A stretch of 64,000 nt of DNA, taken from Chryseobacterium gleum (lineage in GTDB: Bacteria; Bacteroidota; Bacteroidia; Flavobacteriales; Schleiferiaceae). Numbering within the stretch: the first letter of the stretch is position 1; every line of letters starts with the position of its first letter. The stretch is from contig CAMCXO010000010.1 of NCBI GenBank assembly GCA_945883565.1, forward strand, positions 8,019 to 72,018, given 5' to 3'. The notes beneath the pieces were generated by a model that saw only the letters and a list, made by a program, of their open reading frames with translations, was not told the origin of the DNA and ran no database searches. Below are positions 34,816 to 63,280 of the stretch, piece after piece. A program made the translations under genes and the position numbers.

Positions 34816-36711
34816 ATGGGACGCATACAAGTAACCGCAGAGAACATTTTCCCAATTATTAAAAAGTTTCTGTATTCAGACCACGAAATTTTTCTTCGCG
34901 AACTTATCAGCAATGCCGTTGACGCCACCCTCAAATTAAAAACACTCTCGAGACTAGGCGAAATACCCGGCGAATTGGGCGAACTTAAAATTGAAGTAAA
35001 GCTCGATAAAAATGCCAAAACCCTCACCATCTCCGACCGTGGTATTGGCATGACCCAAGATGAAGTAAACCGATACATCAACGAAGTGGCCTTTAGTGGG
35101 GCCGAAGAATTCTTAAAACAATACAAAGACAAAGCACCCGATACAGGCATCATTGGGCATTTTGGACTCGGGTTTTACTCGGCCTTTATGGTTGCCGAAA
35201 AGGTTGAAATTATTAGCCGCTCGTGGACCAGCCAGGAACCAACCAACGCGGTACACTGGAGCTGCAAAGGCGACCCGGAATTTGAAATGGGCAATGGGGA
35301 ACGCGAATTTAGAGGCACAGACATCGTGCTGCACATCAATGCCGAAAGCGAAGAGTTCTTAGAAGAATACCGCATTCGCGAACTACTTAAAAAATACTGC
35401 CGCTTTTTGCCCATTCCCATCCAATTCGGCACCAAAGAAGAAACCATTAAAACCGGTGAAGGCGATGAGGCAAAAGAAGAAAAGAGCACCATCCCCGATA
35501 TAATAAACAACGCTTTGCCCGCCTGGACCAAAGCCCCGGCCGATTTAAGCACCGAAGACTACGACAACTTCTACCGCGAGTTGTACCCCATGAGCTTCGA
35601 AAAACCTCTGTTTTACATCCACCTCAATGTAGACTACCCTTTTAATCTAAACGGTATACTCTACTTCCCTCGCATAAAGCCCAATATGGAGCTTCAGCGC
35701 AACAAAATACAACTCTACCAAAACCAGGTATATGTAACCGATAGCGTAGAAGGTATAGTGCCCGATTTTCTCACCATGCTGCATGGGGTTATTGATTCGA
35801 AAGACATTCCGCTTAACGTTAGCCGTTCGTATTTGCAAGCCGATGGAAACGTGAAAAAAATATCGGGACACATCACCAAAAAAGTGGCCGATAAACTCGA
35901 AGAGATGTTCAAAAACGACCGCGAAGCCTTCGAGAAAAACTGGGACGACACCAAGATTATTGTAGAATACGGAATGCTTACCGAAGAGAAATTCTTCGAT
36001 AAAGCCAAGAAATTTTATCTGCTTAAAGACACTACAGGCCGTTTTTACACCCTCGACGAATACCAAACCGAACATGGTAAGCTGCACGAAGACAAGGATG
36101 GAAATCAAATTTGGTTGTACGCTTCCGATGTCACCGCCCAGCATACAGGCATCGAACAAGCTCAGGAACGAGGCTACAAAGTGCTGGAAATGAAGTCGCC
36201 TTTGGCCTCCCACTTACTCGATAAGTTTGAACGCGACCTTAAAAACACCCGTTTTGCACGAGTAGACAGCGATGCCATAGACCAGCTCATTAAAAAAGAC
36301 GATCAAATGCCTGCCTTGCTAACAGAAGAGCAAGAAAAGGACCTTAAAACCTGGACCGAAGCAGAACTCGAAACATCTAAGTTTCAGGTAAAAGTAGAGC
36401 GCCTCAGCAGCCAAGACGGCCCAATACAAATATTTGTACCCGAATTTATGCGCCGAATGAAAGAAATGAGCGCAACCGGTGGCGGTTTCATGGGCATGGG
36501 CGATTTCCCCGAAACCTACGAACTAAGCGTAAACGCCAACCACCATTTGTGTGGCAAGCTGTTTGGCTTAAGCCCCGAAGCCCGAACCGAAAGCTTGCGC
36601 GAACTCATCGATTTGGCAAAACTCCAGCAAAACCTGTTACACGGAGCCGAACTCAGCGCCTTTATAAAACGCACAAGAACCCAACTCGAAGACAAACTCG
36701 CCCAGCAATAG
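34816..36711 (+). CDS. htpG: molecular chaperone HtpG (Hsp90)
   Basis: 631 aa. ELISNAVDA, DRGIGMTQDEV and GxxGxG of the GHKL ATPase; middle and C-terminal domains. Confidence 0.93.
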   Translation: MGRIQVTAENIFPIIKKFLYSDHEIFLRELISNAVDATLKLKTLSRLGEIPGELGELKIEVKLDKNAKTLTISDRGIGMTQDEVNRYINEVAFSGAEEFLKQYKDKAPDTGIIGHFGLGFYSAFMVAEKVEIISRSWTSQEPTNAVHWSCKGDPEFEMGNGEREFRGTDIVLHINAESEEFLEEYRIRELLKKYCRFLPIPIQFGTKEETIKTGEGDEAKEEKSTIPDIINNALPAWTKAPADLSTEDYDNFYRELYPMSFEKPLFYIHLNVDYPFNLNGILYFPRIKPNMELQRNKIQLYQNQVYVTDSVEGIVPDFLTMLHGVIDSKDIPLNVSRSYLQADGNVKKISGHITKKVADKLEEMFKNDREAFEKNWDDTKIIVEYGMLTEEKFFDKAKKFYLLKDTTGRFYTLDEYQTEHGKLHEDKDGNQIWLYASDVTAQHTGIEQAQERGYKVLEMKSPLASHLLDKFERDLKNTRFARVDSDAIDQLIKKDDQMPALLTEEQEKDLKTWTEAELETSKFQVKVERLSSQDGPIQIFVPEFMRRMKEMSATGGGFMGMGDFPETYELSVNANHHLCGKLFGLSPEARTESLRELIDLAKLQQNLLHGAELSAFIKRTRTQLEDKLAQQ

Positions 36712-36790
36712 GCAAGTATAGTTTAATAAACAGGGCGCCCCCACTTGGGTGTTAAATCCAAGCTTTGTTTATAAAAGTCCGGTCCCCAAG

Positions 36791-36823
36791 CGGGCCGGGC
36801 TTTACGCTCCAAGTCCTCGCCGC
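36791..36823 (+). repeat. GC-rich conserved motif, copy 1 (CGGGCCGGGCTTTACGCTCCAAGTCCTCGCCGC)
   Basis: Matches 62960..62992 at 32 of 33 nt. In both places it lies downstream of a gene's 3' end and upstream of a 21-nt-period tandem repeat. Confidence 0.8.
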
Positions 36824-36893
36824 ATTAAAAAGCCCACAACCAAACCCAAACCCGGGCGCGGCTGTGGGCTTTCCTCTTCAATCCCTGGCGCGG

Positions 36894-37460
36894 CTTCAAA
36901 CGTTAAACTACCCACGTCAAACATTCAACTGCCCGCTTCAAACGTTCAACTGCCCGCTTCAAACGTTCAACTGCCGACTTCAAACGTTCAACTGCCCGCT
37001 TCAAACGTTCAACTGCCCGCTTCAAACGTTCAACTGCCGACTTCAAACGTTCAACTGCCGACTTCAAACGTTCAACTGCCCGCTTCAAACGTTCAACTGC
37101 CGACTTCAAACGTTCAACTGCCGACTTCAAACGTTCAACTGCCGACTTCAAACGTTCAACTGCCGACTTCAAACGTTCAACTGCCGACTTCAAACGTTCA
37201 ACTGCCCGCTTCAAACGTTCAACTGCCCGCTTCAAACGTTCAACTGCCCGCTTCAAACGTTCAACTGCCGACTTCAAACGTTCAACTGCCCGCTTCAAAC
37301 GTTAAACTGCCCGCTTCAAACGTTCAACTGCCGACTTCAAACGTTCAACTGCCCGCTTCAAACGTTCAACTGCCGACTTCAAACGTTCAACTGCCCGCTT
37401 CAAACGTTCAACTGCCGACTTCAAACGTTAAACTACCCACGTCAAACATTCAACCGCCGG
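36894..37460. repeat. 21-bp tandem repeat array, about 27 units
   Basis: Unit CTTCAAACGTTCAACTGCCCG, alternating with the variant ...CTGCCGA. Head-to-tail with no spacers. Because the unit is a multiple of 3, every frame is open, which produces artefactual ORFs (LPASNVQ, QTFNCPL and AVERLKR repeats). Confidence 0.9.
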
Positions 37461-37471
37461 CTTCTCCAATT

Positions 37472-38190
37472 TTTTTACCGACGTTTTCAAATTATCAATA
37501 GACTTCAAACCTTCCCGCGCCGGCATCAAACACTCATTATTTGGCTTCGAGTATTCATCAATAGGCATTTTCAATTTTTTTACCGGCGTTTTCAAATTAT
37601 TTACAGCCTTCGAATGTTCAACGGCCCACACGGACAACGTAGAGACAGGGCATGCCCTGTCTCTACAATCGTTCATACAATCGCCCAAAAGACCAACCAA
37701 TTGAAGAAATTAAATAGCCGCAGGCTTAGAAAAAATCCATCCTAACACCCAAATCACTATAAAAAAAATAAATCCCGGCCCTTTCAGCATGGCGGCAGGT
37801 AAACAGCCGAAGAGGCTTAGTAAGACCACACGAAGGAGCTCGCCCGGCCGCACTTAGCCTCTTCAATGGAGACCAGCCGACATGATGAACAGGCCTTGAC
37901 CTTTTGCCTACTTTTGGGTCAAGCCAAAAGTAGGAAGCCCCCGCGCCGGCGATTGAGGCGCCCAGAAGATCAACCAATTGAAGGAATTCAATGGCCGCAG
38001 GCTTAGAAAAAATCCATCCTAACACCCACCAGCGTTTTCAAATTATTTACAGCCTTCGAATGTTCAACGGCCCACACGGACGATTGTAGAGACAGGGCAT
38101 GCCCTGTCTCTACAATCGTTCATACAATCGCCCAGAAGATCAACCAATTGAAGGAATTCAATGGCCGCAGGCTTAGAGAAAAAATCATTT
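37472..38190. repeat. mosaic direct repeats: two ~150-bp units (37588-37735, 38033-38185) and a ~65-bp 3' module present three times. Each large unit contains the perfect 28-bp palindrome GTAGAGACAGGGCATGCCCTGTCTCTAC.
   Basis: Direct comparison: the units are about 95% identical. Module CGCCCA(R)AAGA(Y)CAACCAATTGAAG(R)AATT(M)AATGGCCGCAGGCTTAGAAAAAATC occurs at about 37681, 37958 and 38129. A further inverted repeat CCTACTTTTGGgtcaagCCAAAAGTAGG lies at 37905-37932. Confidence 0.85.
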
Positions 38191-38259
38191 AAACAAAACA
38201 AAATCACACCAGCCCTGCGCCGTCGATTGAGACAACAAAACACCCTTCCGTACCCTAAA

Positions 38260-40428
38260 TCATAAGTTGTTCAGCACAAATTGCGTCATGCTTTTGTAAA
38301 GATGTAAACGAGTATTCCCACCATAAATGCCATGGTTTTTATCAGGATAAATAAATTGCGTAAAAGGAACATTCGCTTGCACAAGAGCCTCAGTCATACG
38401 CATCGTATTTTGCACATGAACATTGTCATCAGCGCTTCCGTGCACCAACAAATACTGCCCTTTTATCTTGTTAGCGTGTTGCAAAGGCGAATTTTCATCA
38501 TATCCATTGCCGTTTTGCTCAGGAAGACCCATATAACGTTCAGTGTAAATGTTGTCGTAAAAGCGCCAATTGGTTACCGGGGCTACCGCCATAGCCATTT
38601 TAAACACATCGGCGCCTTTGGCAAGGCATAGGCTCGACATATAACCCCCATAACTCCAACCCCAAATACCAAGGCGATTCGGATCGGCTATTTTTTGATC
38701 AATAAGGTATTTGGCAAAGGCAATTTGGTCTTCACTTTCCAGTTTTCCCATTTGGCCGTAGGTACTTTTTCTAAAATCGCGGCCCATAGCACCAGTGCCT
38801 CGGTTGTCTATAGAAGCCACTACATAGCCTTTAGCAAGCAAATGTTCGTACCACATATGGTTAAAACCGTCGTATTCGTCTTTAACGGTTTGAGAACCCG
38901 GCCCCCCGTAAACGAAGAGCAAAACAGGGTAGGTCTTGTTAGCATCGTACTCAGCGGGTTTCATAATCCAGGCACTCATGCTTTGCCCATTTAACTCAAC
39001 TTGCATAAAGGACTTTTGGCCCATTTCAAATGTTTGCAAACGCTGTTTTAGGTCGTCGTTGTTTTGCAATACCCTGAGGAGTTTATCAGTTTTGGCGCTA
39101 TATAATGTGTAGGAAGGGGGCGTTTGGCTGTTTTCGTGCGTAAGGATGTAATAGGTCATCTGTTTGTTGAATTCAAGCGCATTCCAACCGTTGAGCTTTG
39201 AAAGTTTTTGGCTTTTGCCCGAAAGGTTGCAGCGGTAAACATGACGTTGATGAGGGGCGCCTGCCTCAGCGGCTTGGTAGTAAAAGCTTTTGGTTTTAGA
39301 ATCGAAACCATAAACGGTTTCTACATCGAAGGCGCCTTTGGTAAGTTGGGTAGCTTTTTGGCTATGGGTGTTGTGCAGATAAACATGCATAAAGCCGTCG
39401 CGGTCAGAAGAGATGAGCAGGTTCTTATCGTCGATAAAGTTCAAAATGCCGGGAACTTCGAGATAGGCATTATCAGACTCTTGGTAAATGGTTTTGGTTT
39501 CCAGACTTATAGGGTCAATTTGCACCAAACGCATGTTGTTTTGGAGGCGATTCATAAGCATGGCCACCAGCTTACCGCCCGGTGTCCAGTAAATTCTGGG
39601 GATGTATTCAAAATCTTCACCCAAGTTGATGGCTTTGCTTACACCGTTTAGGGTATAAATCCATAAGCTAACCTTCGAATTGGGTTCGCCGGCCTTAGGG
39701 TATTTGAAACGGTTTTGAGCAGGATACAGGTTTTGGCCGTAAACGTCCATCGAAAACTCGGGCACCTGGCTTTCGTCGAAGCGCACATAGGCAATGTATT
39801 GGCCATTTGGCGACCATTCGTAAGCTTGGTCGGTGCTAAATTCTTCCTCATACACCCAGTCGGGTGTGCCATTAATGATGGAGTTAAAAGTGCCATCTTG
39901 GGTAATAGGGGTAATTTGGTCGCTTTTAAGGTCTTTTACATAAAGGTTGTTTTGATGCGAGAACGCCACTTTATCGTCTACTGGCGAGAAGTTGACGTTT
40001 CGAATGGGCTGGTTGTATACCGGATACAACTTATTGTTGGGTCGGTGGAGAATGTAATAAAGACCTTGTGAAGAATGGCGGTAAATGCCTTCAGTTTGGG
40101 TGGCAACCAACAAACCTTCTTCGTCGGGACTAAAGCGGTAGCTGTCTATGCCGGCCCGCAGTTCGGGAAATTGGCTGGGGTCAAGTACCACTTCGAGAGG
40201 GCTCCCATCGGCAAAGGCGAATCGTTGTAGCTTTTGGTTGTTGCCTCTTTCGCTAAAAGCAGTATAGCTAATGCCATCATCAAGACCTGTAAACCCATTT
40301 ATTCCGGCTGCATAAAACTGGTAACGTTGCCATACATCTTCAACTTCTATGGCTTTCTTTTGTGCGATAGAAAAAATAGGGAGAAAGAAGGCCGCGAACA
40401 GCGTCCATTTCAACTTGTTTAGGGTCAT
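38260..40428 (-). CDS. S9 family peptidase, dipeptidyl-peptidase IV-like
   Basis: 722 aa. Signal peptide, N-terminal beta-propeller, C-terminal alpha/beta hydrolase with GWSYGGY Ser nucleophile, then Asp and His. Confidence 0.9.
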   Translation of the reverse strand: MTLNKLKWTLFAAFFLPIFSIAQKKAIEVEDVWQRYQFYAAGINGFTGLDDGISYTAFSERGNNQKLQRFAFADGSPLEVVLDPSQFPELRAGIDSYRFSPDEEGLLVATQTEGIYRHSSQGLYYILHRPNNKLYPVYNQPIRNVNFSPVDDKVAFSHQNNLYVKDLKSDQITPITQDGTFNSIINGTPDWVYEEEFSTDQAYEWSPNGQYIAYVRFDESQVPEFSMDVYGQNLYPAQNRFKYPKAGEPNSKVSLWIYTLNGVSKAINLGEDFEYIPRIYWTPGGKLVAMLMNRLQNNMRLVQIDPISLETKTIYQESDNAYLEVPGILNFIDDKNLLISSDRDGFMHVYLHNTHSQKATQLTKGAFDVETVYGFDSKTKSFYYQAAEAGAPHQRHVYRCNLSGKSQKLSKLNGWNALEFNKQMTYYILTHENSQTPPSYTLYSAKTDKLLRVLQNNDDLKQRLQTFEMGQKSFMQVELNGQSMSAWIMKPAEYDANKTYPVLLFVYGGPGSQTVKDEYDGFNHMWYEHLLAKGYVVASIDNRGTGAMGRDFRKSTYGQMGKLESEDQIAFAKYLIDQKIADPNRLGIWGWSYGGYMSSLCLAKGADVFKMAMAVAPVTNWRFYDNIYTERYMGLPEQNGNGYDENSPLQHANKIKGQYLLVHGSADDNVHVQNTMRMTEALVQANVPFTQFIYPDKNHGIYGGNTRLHLYKSMTQFVLNNL

Positions 40429-62890: not shown

Positions 62891-62959
62891 GACTTAAAAT
62901 AGGGCGCCCCCGCGCGGGGCAAAAGGTTTATGCAAGGCCAAAATACCATCAGCCCCTCG

Positions 62960-62992
62960 CGGGCCGGGCTTTCCGCTCCAAGTCCTCGCCGC
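62960..62992 (+). repeat. GC-rich conserved motif, copy 2 (CGGGCCGGGCTTTCCGCTCCAAGTCCTCGCCGC)
   Basis: 32 of 33 identical to 36791..36823. Flanking similarity extends further (GGGCGCCCCC upstream; GGCTG(Y)GGGCTTT...CTGGCGCGG downstream). Confidence 0.8.
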
Positions 62993-63187
62993 CATTGTCT
63001 GAACCATGATTTTCTGGATTTAAGGATGGGCATGATTAATTCAGAAGGCTTTGGTCAAGGCGGCTGCGGGCTTTACGCTGCAATCGCTGGCGCGGACTGT
63101 CTGGTTTTTTTGTTGTTTGTTCTTGTAGAAACGTTATTTATTTTTGTTAAGACTTGGTTCAAATTACCTGCCTTGATGAGCGCATCT

Positions 63188-63280
63188 CTGCGAAGGTGAC
63201 TTACGAGACTGCGAAGGTGAGTGACGAGACTGCGAAGGTGACTTACGAGTCTGCAGATGGTGACTTACGAGACTGCGAAG
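63188..63280. repeat. 21-22-nt tandem repeat, about 4.4 units (CTGCGAAGGTGACTTACGAGA)
   Basis: Direct reading gives four and a partial head-to-tail units. The same period as the 36894-37460 array but a different unit sequence. Confidence 0.8.

Follow-up and report, generated by a model that had tools for sequence, protein, structure and literature searches.

The convergent genes htpG (plus strand, ending at 36711) and an S9/DPP-IV peptidase gene (minus strand, ending at 38260) are separated by a gap of 1.5 kb that gene callers leave empty, and the question raised by this locus is what kind of DNA fills it. All coordinates refer to the window, i.e. the whole stretch of 64,000 nucleotides analyzed here. 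The original prediction named four possible natures without choosing among them: a structured ncRNA locus, a phase-variation or slippage locus, a satellite-like protein-binding array, or a decayed non-autonomous mobile element. The evidence favours a mixture of a structured ncRNA locus and a slippage-prone dispersed repeat, and a classical decayed mobile element finds no support. The gap is a real, strand-polar, non-coding patchwork of repeat modules. As judged by sequence likeness, these modules belong to a lineage-specific dispersed family with at least four related loci, counting that of the window; the complex is not the one-off it was taken for, as the same module family was found at at least three further loci. 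With a probability of about one half, we read the complex as a set of strand-polar dispersed non-coding modules together with a minisatellite grown by slippage, with putative minus-strand transcription and presumed hairpin terminators.

On the minus strand the first part of the complex runs from a tail and module B through palindrome P2 and module A to U2, with a terminator-like U-run. The second part leads from module B through palindrome P1 and module A to the 21-nt tract, in which eight degenerate units are followed by 27 homogeneous ones, and then to a Flavo-1-like element, which is closed by a hairpin and U-run and adjoins the 3' end of htpG. Both this strand polarity and the left flank (36728-36900), where a conserved structured element is located, had previously gone unnoticed.

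The related loci L211/L212 and L213 carry the 21-nt unit and a 105-bp higher-order repeat, with module order and orientation as in the window. L211 has none of modules A, B and P, and the modules form mosaics that are shuffled differently from locus to locus. The diverged arrays of L211 and L212 are identical assemblies from two samples. Tetranucleotide composition of the coding flanks correlates with that of the window at r = 0.96 (L211/L212) and 0.93 (L213), as against r of 0.85 or less in a set of about 130 other loci (minimum length 8 kb); these values suggest that L211/L212 and L213 belong to the genome of the window or to a sister genome. The closest relatives of HtpG are found in Cryomorphaceae, Owenweeksia and Schleiferiaceae MAGs (62-72% identity). 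The best of them (72%) is non-syntenic and has no tandem repeats, and none of the 80 relatives gave a BLAST match to the gap.

The independent ENA contig k141_692234 (L001) shows 0 mismatches to the window in 28,992 flanking nt. Because this metagenome contig carries the same locus, the locus structure is regarded as real, with 27 units as the as-assembled count. The two sequences differ in the array (27 units in the window, 8 in L001), in the 103-bp tail module (one copy versus two) and in a rearrangement breakpoint inside the Flavo-1-like element of a second locus in the window, locus B, which also contains three SNPs. All differences between these two otherwise identical assemblies fall in repeat modules, which fits the ongoing slippage or recombination suggested earlier. 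Array-length polymorphism is not proven by this comparison, because the 8-unit array of L001 could be a short-read collapse (MEGAHIT, several k-mer sizes); the extra tail unit in L001 cannot be explained in this way.

The 21-bp minisatellite and its degenerate continuation

Tandem Repeats Finder reports a repeat of period 21 at 36894-37458, with 26.9 copies, 92% matches and 0 indels; together with a unit census this locates the homogeneous, head-to-tail minisatellite of 27 units at 36894-37460 (minus strand), as originally described. The census also bears out the two unit variants, ..CTGCCGA (12 units) and ..CTGCCCG (10 units), and adds a single TTAAAC variant; the array is bordered on either side by a two-unit 'edge' block, whose copies differ by 2 mismatches. 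The 19-nt unit core has 29 matches in the window, compared to 0.01 expected from shuffles. Read on the minus strand, the unit consists of GTTGAACGTTTGAAG and a variable 6-nt linker; the core GTTGAAyGTTTGAAG is conserved among units. GC skew across the array is approximately -0.44, and predicted folding of the array RNA yields -41 kcal per 126 nt on the minus strand versus -12 on the plus strand.

The 21-nt register does not end at 37460, as had been assumed, but extends over eight degenerate units (37461-37628, minus strand) organized as a 105-bp (5-unit) higher-order repeat with a spacing of 105, common to L211 and L213. The register is kept without indels over 35 units in the window and 46 units in L211, the old units being only about 50% alike. 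Conserved positions lack 3-periodicity, and the old units contain in-phase A-tracts (GGTAAAAAAATTGAAAATG). Such a strict register over 46 L211 units at about 50% divergence is not obviously predicted by a purely neutral minisatellite; it hints at a phase constraint, from the DNA helical repeat or from protein binding. In a set of about 200 Bacteroidota loci, tandem repeats of at least 12 bp most often have a period of 21-22 bp, and in Fulvitalea pFA9 a 21-bp array is located 0.45 kb upstream of a rep gene. The search for the unit elsewhere was positive for L211/L212 and L213 and gave no match in JGI metagenomes or IMG/VR; the unit therefore shows no conservation beyond this lineage.

The array would have originated at the 5' edge of the Flavo-1-like element, which contains TTGAAG, the unit (...GTTTGAAGCGGGCAG) resembling the Flavo-1 boxes GAUUGAAGnGGAAAG, and would have grown through slipped-strand mispairing and unequal recombination. 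The homogeneous, presumably young units adjoin this element and the decayed units lie farther off. Most likely the array itself would be an expandable tract without a sequence-specific role, its main consequence being rapid structural variation. Like bacterial VNTRs and minisatellites, the tract has head-to-tail units, a homogenized core, decay to one side, a 5-unit higher-order repeat and a copy number that differs between near-identical genomes (27 versus 8, possibly by collapse); unlike them, it is multi-locus, keeps a fixed orientation relative to other modules and holds 35-46 units in strict phase.

Several other identities of the array were rejected. It is not a CRISPR, as already stated in the original prediction: the units are strictly head-to-tail at a spacing of 21 throughout, with no spacers between them, and the sole Rfam CRISPR match is noise (E = 5). 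An ECF-type promoter spacing (AAC...CGT) was discarded by inspection, with 20 nt instead of 16-17. For an oriC or plasmid iteron origin there is no DnaA box in 36.7-38.3 kb (7 in the entire window versus 15 expected), no window-wide skew inversion at the locus and no rep gene nearby.

Of the alternatives to slippage-grown modules, the one that survives best, though still unlikely, is a phased protein-binding DNA array, with 35-46 units two helical turns apart presenting the TTGAA-containing box on one helix face; many copies of a DNA-binding protein would then form a nucleoprotein structure or a titration sink, comparable to iterons, LytTR-type direct repeats or centromere-like sites, with the Flavo-1 boxes as further sites for this protein. 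The indel-free register despite low likeness, the missing 3-periodicity, the core kept beside a varying linker, the in-phase A-tracts and the frequency of 21-22 bp periods, including that of pFA9, all agree with such an array. LytTR regulators bind 9-bp direct repeats with 21-bp spacing in boxes such as ACAGTTGAG, and the array unit contains GCAGTTGAA, which may resemble a LytTR box. Plasmid iterons and LytTR operators likewise combine a period of two helical turns with a conserved core and a variable spacer; the gap array differs from them in having 27-46 copies rather than 2-7 and no adjacent rep or regulator gene. None of the loci has a rep, par or regulator gene next to it, their neighbours differ, and the array unit of locus B (63.2 kb) is unrelated and lacks TTGAA. 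Strand asymmetry and conserved U-run hairpins would not be needed for a double-stranded DNA site, and unequal crossing-over in unit register can keep phase without selection.

Promoter-like modules and REP-like palindromes

The remaining part of the gap is built around a repeat of about 150 bp, the two copies of which (37582-37735, 154 bp; 38028-38182, 155 bp) are 93.5% identical, close to the 95% first estimated. Module A (minus strand) is located at 37582-37635 and 38028-38081. Its first copy contains TTG (37621-37619), a 19-nt spacer and TAATTTG (37599-37593) and points into the 21-nt tract; the second contains TTG (38067-38065), a 19-nt spacer and TAATTTG (38045-38039) and points into U2. 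The sigma-A consensus of Bacteroidota is TAnnTTTG (PMC9723704). An exact scan for TTG-N17-21-TAnnTTTG found 8 matches in the window and 0 in the gap, so that it is the TAATTTG variant that carries the promoter call; this variant also occurs upstream of two window genes. We infer that module A is a near-consensus Bacteroidota sigma-A promoter, one position off consensus; the motif is degenerate in L213. Matches from a sigma-70 promoter scan were set aside as uninformative for Bacteroidota.

Module B, copy 1 (37667-37735, minus strand), contains the imperfect hairpin CCAATTGAAG.AATT.AATGG and an A/T run and is also present in L213. Copy 2 and the 103-bp tail unit (38131-38233), the one that occurs twice in L001, together occupy 38114-38233 (minus strand). 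Copy 3, the expected third occurrence of the 3' module, was located at 37958-38026 and is part of U2 (37760-38027, minus strand), a candidate structured RNA of about 270 nt according to minus-strand folding (-123.5 kcal/mol, z -4.6; plus strand -93.1). U2 also contains a long hairpin of about 120 nt and the 11-bp-arm hairpin, found at 37905-37932 as predicted; the latter is a dispersed element, which shares 95% identity with a counterpart in Parabacteroides distasonis. The end of U2, GGGCCGGGAUUUAUUUUUUUU (37781-37761), resembles an intrinsic terminator, and this module is conserved in L213 and L216.

The sequence GTAGAGACAGGGCATGCCCTGTCTCTAC occurs exactly at 37639-37666 (P1) and 38086-38113 (P2), with 0 copies expected, and both window copies lie in the gap; each ~150-bp unit accordingly holds the perfect 28-bp palindrome first noticed there. 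P1 is GTAG-tagged and REP-like, and an inverted-repeat search showed P2 to be contained in a perfect 40-bp palindrome (38080-38119), both lengths being within the 20-40 bp range of REP stem-loops. A wider search, as originally suggested, found the exact palindrome in 5 viral contigs, its core in more than 120 metagenome contigs and near-exact copies in Parabacteroides, Fulvitalea and Persicobacter. The palindrome is 100% conserved among Flavobacteriales, Cytophagales and phage contigs, with one compensated pair differing in Bacteroidales; A/T and G/C variants co-vary, boundaries are sharp and flanks are unrelated among copies. GTAG is found at one or both ends in 100 of 113 other distinct copies (one end 53, both 47, neither 13); in the window it is at both ends and paired. 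The 54 sites between two called ORFs comprise 31 tandem, 19 convergent and 4 divergent arrangements, and annotated examples agree with this distribution, being mostly just 3' of genes and seldom between divergent genes. In 10 cases the TAG of GTAG serves as stop codon. Inverted doublets of about 108 bp recur.

Judging from these copies, the palindrome behaves like a GTAG-type REP dispersed across Bacteroidota and some phage contigs, and not like the locus-specific hairpin it was thought to be. It shares with GTAG-tagged REPs and REPINs (PMC3733652) a 28-bp GTAG palindrome with sharp edges and unrelated flanks, sites mainly 3' of genes in convergent or unidirectional arrangement and some ~108-bp inverted doublets. 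In GTAG-tagged REPs, in contrast, GTAG is an unpaired tag at one end, whereas it is paired and at both ends in the window, and those repeats are species-specific, whereas the window palindrome is conserved across Bacteroidota orders and phage contigs. For Bacteroidetes, the survey of Di Nocera et al. (2013) described repeats of the CGTC type only (PMC3733652). Neither variant of the palindrome was found in any searchable paper. A likeness to the Tn5 mosaic end (AGAGACAG) covers only 8 nt and is treated as coincidence, because compensated natural variants of the palindrome exist.

The spread of the palindrome over the entire phylum and its phages is one reason to consider MITE-like non-autonomous mobile elements, which would have transposed en bloc into safe sites between genes and would now be decaying. 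The recurrence of one module order at several unrelated loci, the mosaic and reshuffled modules, and the exact switch between the sequences of the two strains at the edge of a Flavo-1-like element, that of locus B, also suit this explanation, which we nevertheless find improbable. Inspection of the outer ends of the loci in the window, L211 and L213 revealed neither terminal inverted repeats nor target-site duplications in common, and no transposase or RAYT gene was seen at the compared loci (64 kb of the window's genome covered). Locus boundaries and module content vary, as in L211 with its missing A, B and P, and the three SNPs in the Flavo-1-like element of locus B are better explained by homologous recombination between paralogs than by transposition.

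The Flavo-1-like element and locus B

The Rfam covariance scan proposed for this region produced no family at gathering score in the window. By E-value only weak matches to Flavo-1 and BTnc231 were obtained, and BTnc231 was rejected, its match being carried mostly by the palindrome aligned to the terminator hairpin of the model. The Flavo-1 (RF01705) match at 36789-36899 (minus strand) scores 25.5 bits against a gathering score of 42; L212 reaches 29.9 and p5482 24.5 bits, so that all matches (24.5-29.9) remain under 42. Based on this match, on paralogs and on folding, a Flavo-1-like structured element of about 170 nt is placed at 36728-36900 (minus strand). Its paralogs are located at 62897-63100 (minus strand) in the window (locus B) and at 1160-1335 in L211. 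Both Flavo-1 boxes align with posterior probability '*' in 4/4 copies, with a hairpin between them, and are near-identical in the A and B copies of the window, L211 and Bacteroides p5482; the 3' box is identical at 28/29 positions to the copy on the plasmid p5482. The element directly adjoins the last array unit and ends in a terminator-like hairpin and GGGGGCGCCCU(G)UUUAUU.

In common with Flavo-1 as described by Weinberg et al. (2010, PMC2864571) the element has the phylum and the boxes GAUUGAAGnGGAAA... and ...UUGgAGCGnAAAGC on either side of a hairpin. It differs in scoring below the gathering threshold, in a terminal hairpin larger by 35-65 nt, in a conserved part that runs about 60 nt further 3', to the hairpin and U-run, and in its fusion to the 21-nt repeat tract, which is absent from the Rfam description. 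Flavo-1 ranges over Bacteroidota, mainly Flavobacteriia, and the window is consistent with this by its HtpG relatives. A search of six Flavobacteriaceae loci (131 kb) for Flavo-1 gave 0 matches, and nhmmer with an alignment of the Flavo-1-like elements added no copies in about 2 Mb of collected loci. In F. psychrophilum Flavo-1 matches are sense or antisense to transcripts and many are untranscribed (PMC9723704); given this inconsistency, the Flavo-1-like element may act as DNA rather than RNA.

For the array, U2 and the Flavo-1-like element, predicted RNA folding is much more stable on the minus strand than on the plus strand, and the predicted pairs are rich in G-U. The Flavo-1-like element reaches -82.9 kcal/mol (z -4.5) on the minus strand versus -69.3 on the plus strand; many of its predicted pairs are G-U and therefore exist on the minus strand only. 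Terminator-like U-run ends on the minus strand are conserved in A, B, L211, L213 and L216. The two blocks would be transcribed from the minus strand as non-coding RNAs, and palindromes and U-run hairpins would form 3' hairpins or terminators, insulating the transcripts of the convergent htpG and DPP-IV genes.

Locus B follows downstream of a T9SS-sorted PhoX-like gene. Its Flavo-1-like element is accompanied by a second 21-bp array of 4.4 copies of the unrelated unit CTGCGAAGGTGACTTACGAGA (63188-63280, plus strand, from tandem-repeat analysis), which is preceded by a consensus promoter TTG-N19-TATTTTTG at 63117-63146 (plus strand). From these orientations the array appears to be transcribed opposite to its Flavo-1-like element. 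The pairing of array and Flavo-1 is not obligatory, because the 21-nt array of L213 stands alone, without a Flavo-1-like element, and locus B pairs such an element with an unrelated array.

A quite improbable reading is that of a multivalent ncRNA, in which dozens of minus-strand UUGAAG(C)GG boxes upstream of the Flavo-1-like fold act as scaffold or sponge, either for an RNA-binding protein or for a second RNA, and array length tunes the dose. The array unit has UUGAAGCGG in common with the conserved 5' box of Flavo-1, in both the window and L211 the array and the Flavo-1-like element share a strand, with the array on the 5' side, and the predicted folding and terminators are minus-strand-specific. 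Against this reading stand L213 without a Flavo-1-like element, the different unit of locus B, the absence of the unit from JGI metagenomes and IMG/VR, and the Flavo-1 motif itself, for which there is neither a demonstrated function nor a consistent orientation to transcripts (PMC9723704). CsrB/RsmZ sponge RNAs provide an analogy of mechanism only, i.e. many short motifs on one putative transcript ending in a terminator; the gap array has no sequence or structural relationship to them and its transcription is putative. We know of no cognate protein for a sponge of this type in Bacteroidota.

Coding capacity, assembly and significance

The gap has no coding capacity, and the open reading frames across it are repeat artefacts, as initially proposed. 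Their codon log-odds range from -0.44 to 0.14, compared to 0.22-0.57 for real genes, and Pfam returns only compositional coiled-coil and low-complexity noise. The sole open minus-strand frame has an in-frame TAA in every copy (3 in the window, 8 in L211), and the ORFs on the plus strand differ between the window and L213, with unrelated N- and C-termini and the palindrome read in different frames. Units vary in the linker and at stop-creating sites instead of at third codon positions. A protein search with the AVERLK array gave nothing at E <= 1e-8.

A real or recently inactivated heptad-repeat gene, AVERLK[RS] on the minus strand or LP[AT]SNVQ / QTFNCPL on the plus strand, is accordingly scarcely credible, even though 21 bp equal 7 codons, the minus frame is a canonical a/d heptad matching hundreds of coiled-coil Pfam models and the plus frames are open for 250-326 aa. 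In addition to the stops in each minus-frame copy and codon log-odds under those of all real genes, neither start nor signal peptide nor terminus is conserved between loci, the degenerate units would place proline at every seventh residue, inter-unit variation is non-synonymous or nonsense, and no homologous protein is found except tiny ORF calls on the same DNA. An assembly artefact, the concern raised at the outset, is equally hard to credit: copy numbers do disagree between the two assemblies and a Logan contig breaks 107 bp after htpG, but the locus recurs in an independent contig, modules, junctions and order recur in independent assemblies from several samples, L211 equals L212 in two samples and the flanks are identical on both sides.

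The modules are the sites at which otherwise identical strains differ and at which short-read assemblies break or collapse, and fragmentation and wrong sizes are to be expected at such repeat loci in MAGs of this lineage. The palindrome may be a phylum-wide 3'-end or terminator element ignored by annotation pipelines, which supplies the stop codon in some genes. Flavo-1 has been an orphan since 2010; here a Flavo-1-like element is joined, physically and directionally, to a tract whose unit resembles its own conserved box, and the junction suggests TTGAAGCGG as a candidate bound sequence, in DNA or RNA. It is conceivable, if doubtful, that the 21-nt tract and the Flavo-1-like element together constitute a new element class, an expandable multivalent ncRNA or a phased DNA array, whose dozens of TTGAAG(C)GG boxes, akin to the conserved boxes of Flavo-1, recruit or titrate a putative Bacteroidota protein. 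If true, this would give the first functional handle on Flavo-1, and array length would be a rapidly evolving dose control.

The htpG / DPP-IV gap and its coding status

The gap (36712-38259) is flanked by the 3' ends of two convergent genes, htpG (34816-36711, plus strand) to its left and an S9/DPP-IV peptidase gene (38260-40428, minus strand) to its right, and is left empty by gene callers. Its anatomy, described in the original prediction as a 21-bp array, large units, a palindrome and a hairpin, proved accurate. According to Tandem Repeats Finder, the array spans 36894-37458 and holds 26.9 copies at 92% matches, free of indels; the unit core has 29 matches in the window, where chance predicts 0.01. 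Twelve of the 27 units are of the ..CTGCCGA type, ten of the ..CTGCCCG type and one is a TTAAAC variant, the rest forming a two-unit edge block at either array end, with near-identical copies (2 mismatches). The homogeneous part of the array stands as first delimited, but not its end at 37460: eight degenerate units, arranged as a 105-bp higher-order repeat, continue in the 21-nt register up to 37628. The two large units of about 150 bp are located at 37582-37735 (154 bp) and 38028-38182 (155 bp), with 93.5% identity instead of the approximately 95% noted before, and their 3' module occurs a third time at 37958-38026. The 28-bp palindrome is present in two exact copies (0 expected), the second of which extends to a perfect palindrome of 40 bp. 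The 11-bp-arm hairpin is found at 37905-37932.

The long plus-strand repeat ORFs (250 and 326 aa in the window, 290 aa in the related locus L213) were rejected as genes, their N and C termini being unrelated and the palindrome being read in differing frames. A minus-strand heptad gene was likewise rejected, with 3 in-frame TAA stops in the window in the sole open frame (AVERLK[RS]); the paralogous array of L211, a related locus on another contig, has 8 in the same frame. Codon log-odds range from -0.44 to 0.14 for all repeat ORFs versus 0.22-0.57 for the real genes of the window, scored leave-one-out. Variation between units affects a 6-nt linker, G4T (which creates TAA) and C7T, not the third codon positions, and Pfam searches with the repeat ORFs returned compositional coiled-coil matches only. 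Codon log-odds, in-frame stops, unrelated termini, Pfam noise and the lack of gene calls together uphold the claim that the region is non-coding. A replication origin was discarded: the gap holds 0 DnaA boxes, and there is no window-wide switch of GC skew; a CRISPR array is dismissed, as before, by the absence of spacers between the repeat units.

Flavo-1-like elements and strand polarity

The left flank of the array, formerly taken as empty, carries a conserved structured element. BLAST of the gap against the remaining window detected a paralog at about 63 kb: segment 36790-36823 recurs at 62959-62992, and segment 36858-36893 at 63060-63095. The Rfam search suggested with the original prediction recovered the boxes of Flavo-1 (RF01705) on the minus strand, but at 25.5 bits, below the gathering score of 42; it is the only notable Rfam match on that strand. 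The two conserved boxes are aligned with high posterior probability, and the terminal hairpin is expanded. The same behaviour of boxes and hairpin is seen in L212 (29.9 bits), identical to L211, and in the Bacteroides plasmid p5482 (24.5 bits), whose 3' box GGCGAGGACTTGGAGCGTAAAGCCCG matches the window in 28 of 29 positions. Because of the sub-threshold score, the conserved boxes and the expanded hairpin, the element is classed as Flavo-1-like and not as a member of Flavo-1. The paralogs can be aligned across about 170-200 nt and end at the 3' side in a hairpin followed by a GGGGGCGCCCU-U-run, with numerous G-U pairs. Predicted folding of the left-flank element is -82.9 kcal/mol on the minus strand versus -69.3 kcal/mol on the plus strand. 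A caution comes from F. psychrophilum, where Flavo-1 matches fall on either strand relative to transcripts and many lack transcription (PMC9723704).

The second element of the window, locus B (62897-63100, minus strand), is situated downstream of a 1650-aa PhoX-like protein with a T9SS sorting tail. Next come, on the plus strand, a perfect Bacteroidota promoter consensus, TTG-N19-TATTTTTG (63117-63146), and then a 21-bp tandem array of another unit, CTGCGAAGGTGACTTACGAGA, in 4.4 copies ending at 63280. The element of p5482 (Bacteroides thetaiotaomicron; L215 2460-2533) is compact with a minimal loop and is located in the 520-bp intergenic stretch that follows the final gene of a tra operon (DUF4425, TraO); 17 related conjugative Bacteroidales plasmids share its 29-nt box.

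The array has a GC skew of -0.44, the minus strand being rich in G+U, and its predicted folding per 126 nt is -41 kcal for the minus strand versus -12 for the plus strand. U2, a hairpin-rich unit (38027 to 37760), folds as a whole at -123.5 kcal/mol (z -4.6) on the minus strand and -93.1 on the plus strand; its minus-strand end GGGCCGGGAUUUAUUUUUUUU is terminator-like, and L213 and L216 (the locus B end of an independent assembly) conserve this terminator module. On the minus strand each palindrome is followed by module A, which bears the promoter-like motif TTG-N19-TAATTTG, one position off the Bacteroidota consensus (-7 element TAnnTTTG; PMC9723704). The TAATTTG variant also occurs upstream of two window genes, and the motif is degenerate in module A of L213. 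The order of palindrome and module A motif, the minus-strand folds and the conserved terminator tentatively suggest two minus-strand transcription units with predicted promoters and terminators, each of which would run from palindrome through promoter and body to terminator.

Dispersed palindromes, hairpins and related complexes

The palindrome, GTAGAGAC[A/G]GGGCATGCCC[T/C]GTCTCTAC, is not specific to this locus, with copies in IMG/VR, metagenomes and several Bacteroidota replicons (metagenome, viral and plasmid loci L083-L087, L088-L090 and L091-L210). The exact 28-mer occurs in 5 IMG/VR contigs (37-51% GC) whose flanks are unrelated, its 20-nt core in more than 120 metagenome contigs among the matches listed, and near-exact copies in replicons of Parabacteroides distasonis, Fulvitalea and Persicobacter. 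Conservation stops sharply at 28 nt, and the A..T and G..C variants co-vary nearly always. GTAG is present at one or both ends in 100 of 113 distinct copies. Most copies lie directly 3' of genes, with the upstream ORF ending on the TAG as its stop codon in 10 cases, and only 4 of 54 sites fall in divergent intergenic regions. Inverted doublets of about 108 bp (L105 1586-1693, also L145, L164, L173, L176, L180, L189 and L196) consist of two inverted cores with GTAG on the outer ends only and a conserved spacer of about 50 nt, and resemble REPINs. The palindrome thus behaves as GTAG-tagged REPs and REPINs do in a survey that reported CGTC-type repeats as the only ones in Bacteroidetes (PMC3733652); no occurrence of its sequence was found in the searchable literature. 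Judged from these copies, it is a phylum-wide dispersed element that is also carried by phage contigs.

The 11-bp-arm hairpin with its flank shares 95% identity over 39 nt with an element that lies 3' of an HU-family gene in Parabacteroides distasonis, and is likewise a dispersed Bacteroidota element. The hairpin plus CAAAAGGTCAAGG (37893-37931) matches L214 2474-2539, where the first half of the element is tandemly duplicated. The segment order a-b-a'-b' would allow either a pseudoknot or a pair of alternative hairpins.

The small minus-strand ORF 37428-37700, used as query in a protein search, yielded 3 tiny 'proteins', all of them ORF calls on related DNA, whose contigs carry the modules of the gap in the same order (window minus-strand orientation); the complex, formerly seen at a single site, thus recurs. 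L211/L212, recovered in two samples, has a hairpin followed by 22 degenerate 21-mers, among them three 105-bp higher-order repeats; next come 24 arrayed copies of the window's unit, more diverged, a Flavo-1-like element and an S46 peptidase gene. L213, from the same assembly as the gap, lacks a Flavo-1-like element; its U2-type terminator is followed by module B (an imperfect hairpin), a palindrome centred on GCAAGC, module A, 4.4 higher-order repeats and an array of 12 units. L213 (1-100 and 400-432) also contains two copies of GAATCATGTCGCCCCTTCGGGGCTTT, with a partial, sub-threshold match to Acido-Lenti-1, and a 12-bp tandem repeat, GGGCGATTGTAT x2, that continues into the palindrome's left arm. 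Since the tetranucleotide profiles of the coding flanks correlate with the window at r = 0.96 (L211) and r = 0.93 (L213), compared with at most 0.85 for about 130 unrelated loci 8 kb or longer, both loci are assigned to the window's own genome or a sister genome. The 21-bp unit was detected neither in JGI metagenomes or IMG/VR nor in the htpG loci of the 80 closest reference genomes, so on these searches the 21-nt tract is lineage-specific.

Origin, instability and overall reading

The unit end ...GTTTGAAGCGGGCAG resembles the Flavo-1 boxes GAUUGAAGnGGAAAG and CUUGGAGCGGAAAG, and the final unit continues directly into the 5' tail UUUGAAGCC of the Flavo-1-like element, with homogeneous units adjoining that element and decayed units farther off. 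Box likeness and unit gradient fit a birth by slippage between TTGAAG direct repeats, which unequal recombination would have followed. Ongoing slippage or recombination, proposed originally, gains support from the ENA contig k141_692234, an independent assembly of the same strain with 0 mismatches in 28,992 nt: it carries 8 array units versus 27 in the window, which may be an assembly collapse, and 2 copies of the 103-bp tail module versus 1. At locus B the contig is identical for 8165 nt and then shows 3 SNPs, all inside the Flavo-1-like 5' box (63051-63096 versus L216 8166-8583). From 63096 on it continues into wholly unrelated sequence with a U2-type terminator-like module; the window continues into the promoter, the 21-bp array and an HTH-cytosine-methyltransferase gene from 63534. 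This switch is a strain-level rearrangement or an island junction located at the element's edge; neither it nor the extra tail unit can be explained by collapse, and the comparison supports rapid change of the repeat modules. A Logan contig (L002, ERR3719161) breaks 107 bp past htpG, and the contigs of L211 and L213 begin at or within repeat modules; because short-read contigs end there, MAGs of the lineage are expected to be fragmented at such loci.

The 21-nt register of L211 is indel-free through 46 units, the old ones only about 50% alike, and the far end of L213 has one 1-nt slip. Among roughly 200 Bacteroidota loci, 21-22 bp is the commonest period of tandem repeats of at least 12 bp. 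The indel-free register and this prevalence leave room for a DNA-level array with helical phase behind the register, or for a multivalent RNA made from the array. Fulvitalea axinellae pFA9 has a 21-bp tandem repeat of 3.9 copies (L090 17798-17878), 0.45 kb upstream of the plasmid replication initiation (rep) gene; these repeats are probably iterons.

The complex is real and non-coding, and more structured and more widely spread than the original prediction could show. It is best described as combining known kinds, namely REP-like palindromes, a Flavo-1-like element and a minisatellite, in a polar, multi-copy, recombination-prone module family. Its ties to the orphan Flavo-1 motif and to the phylum-wide GTAG palindrome are worth most attention.
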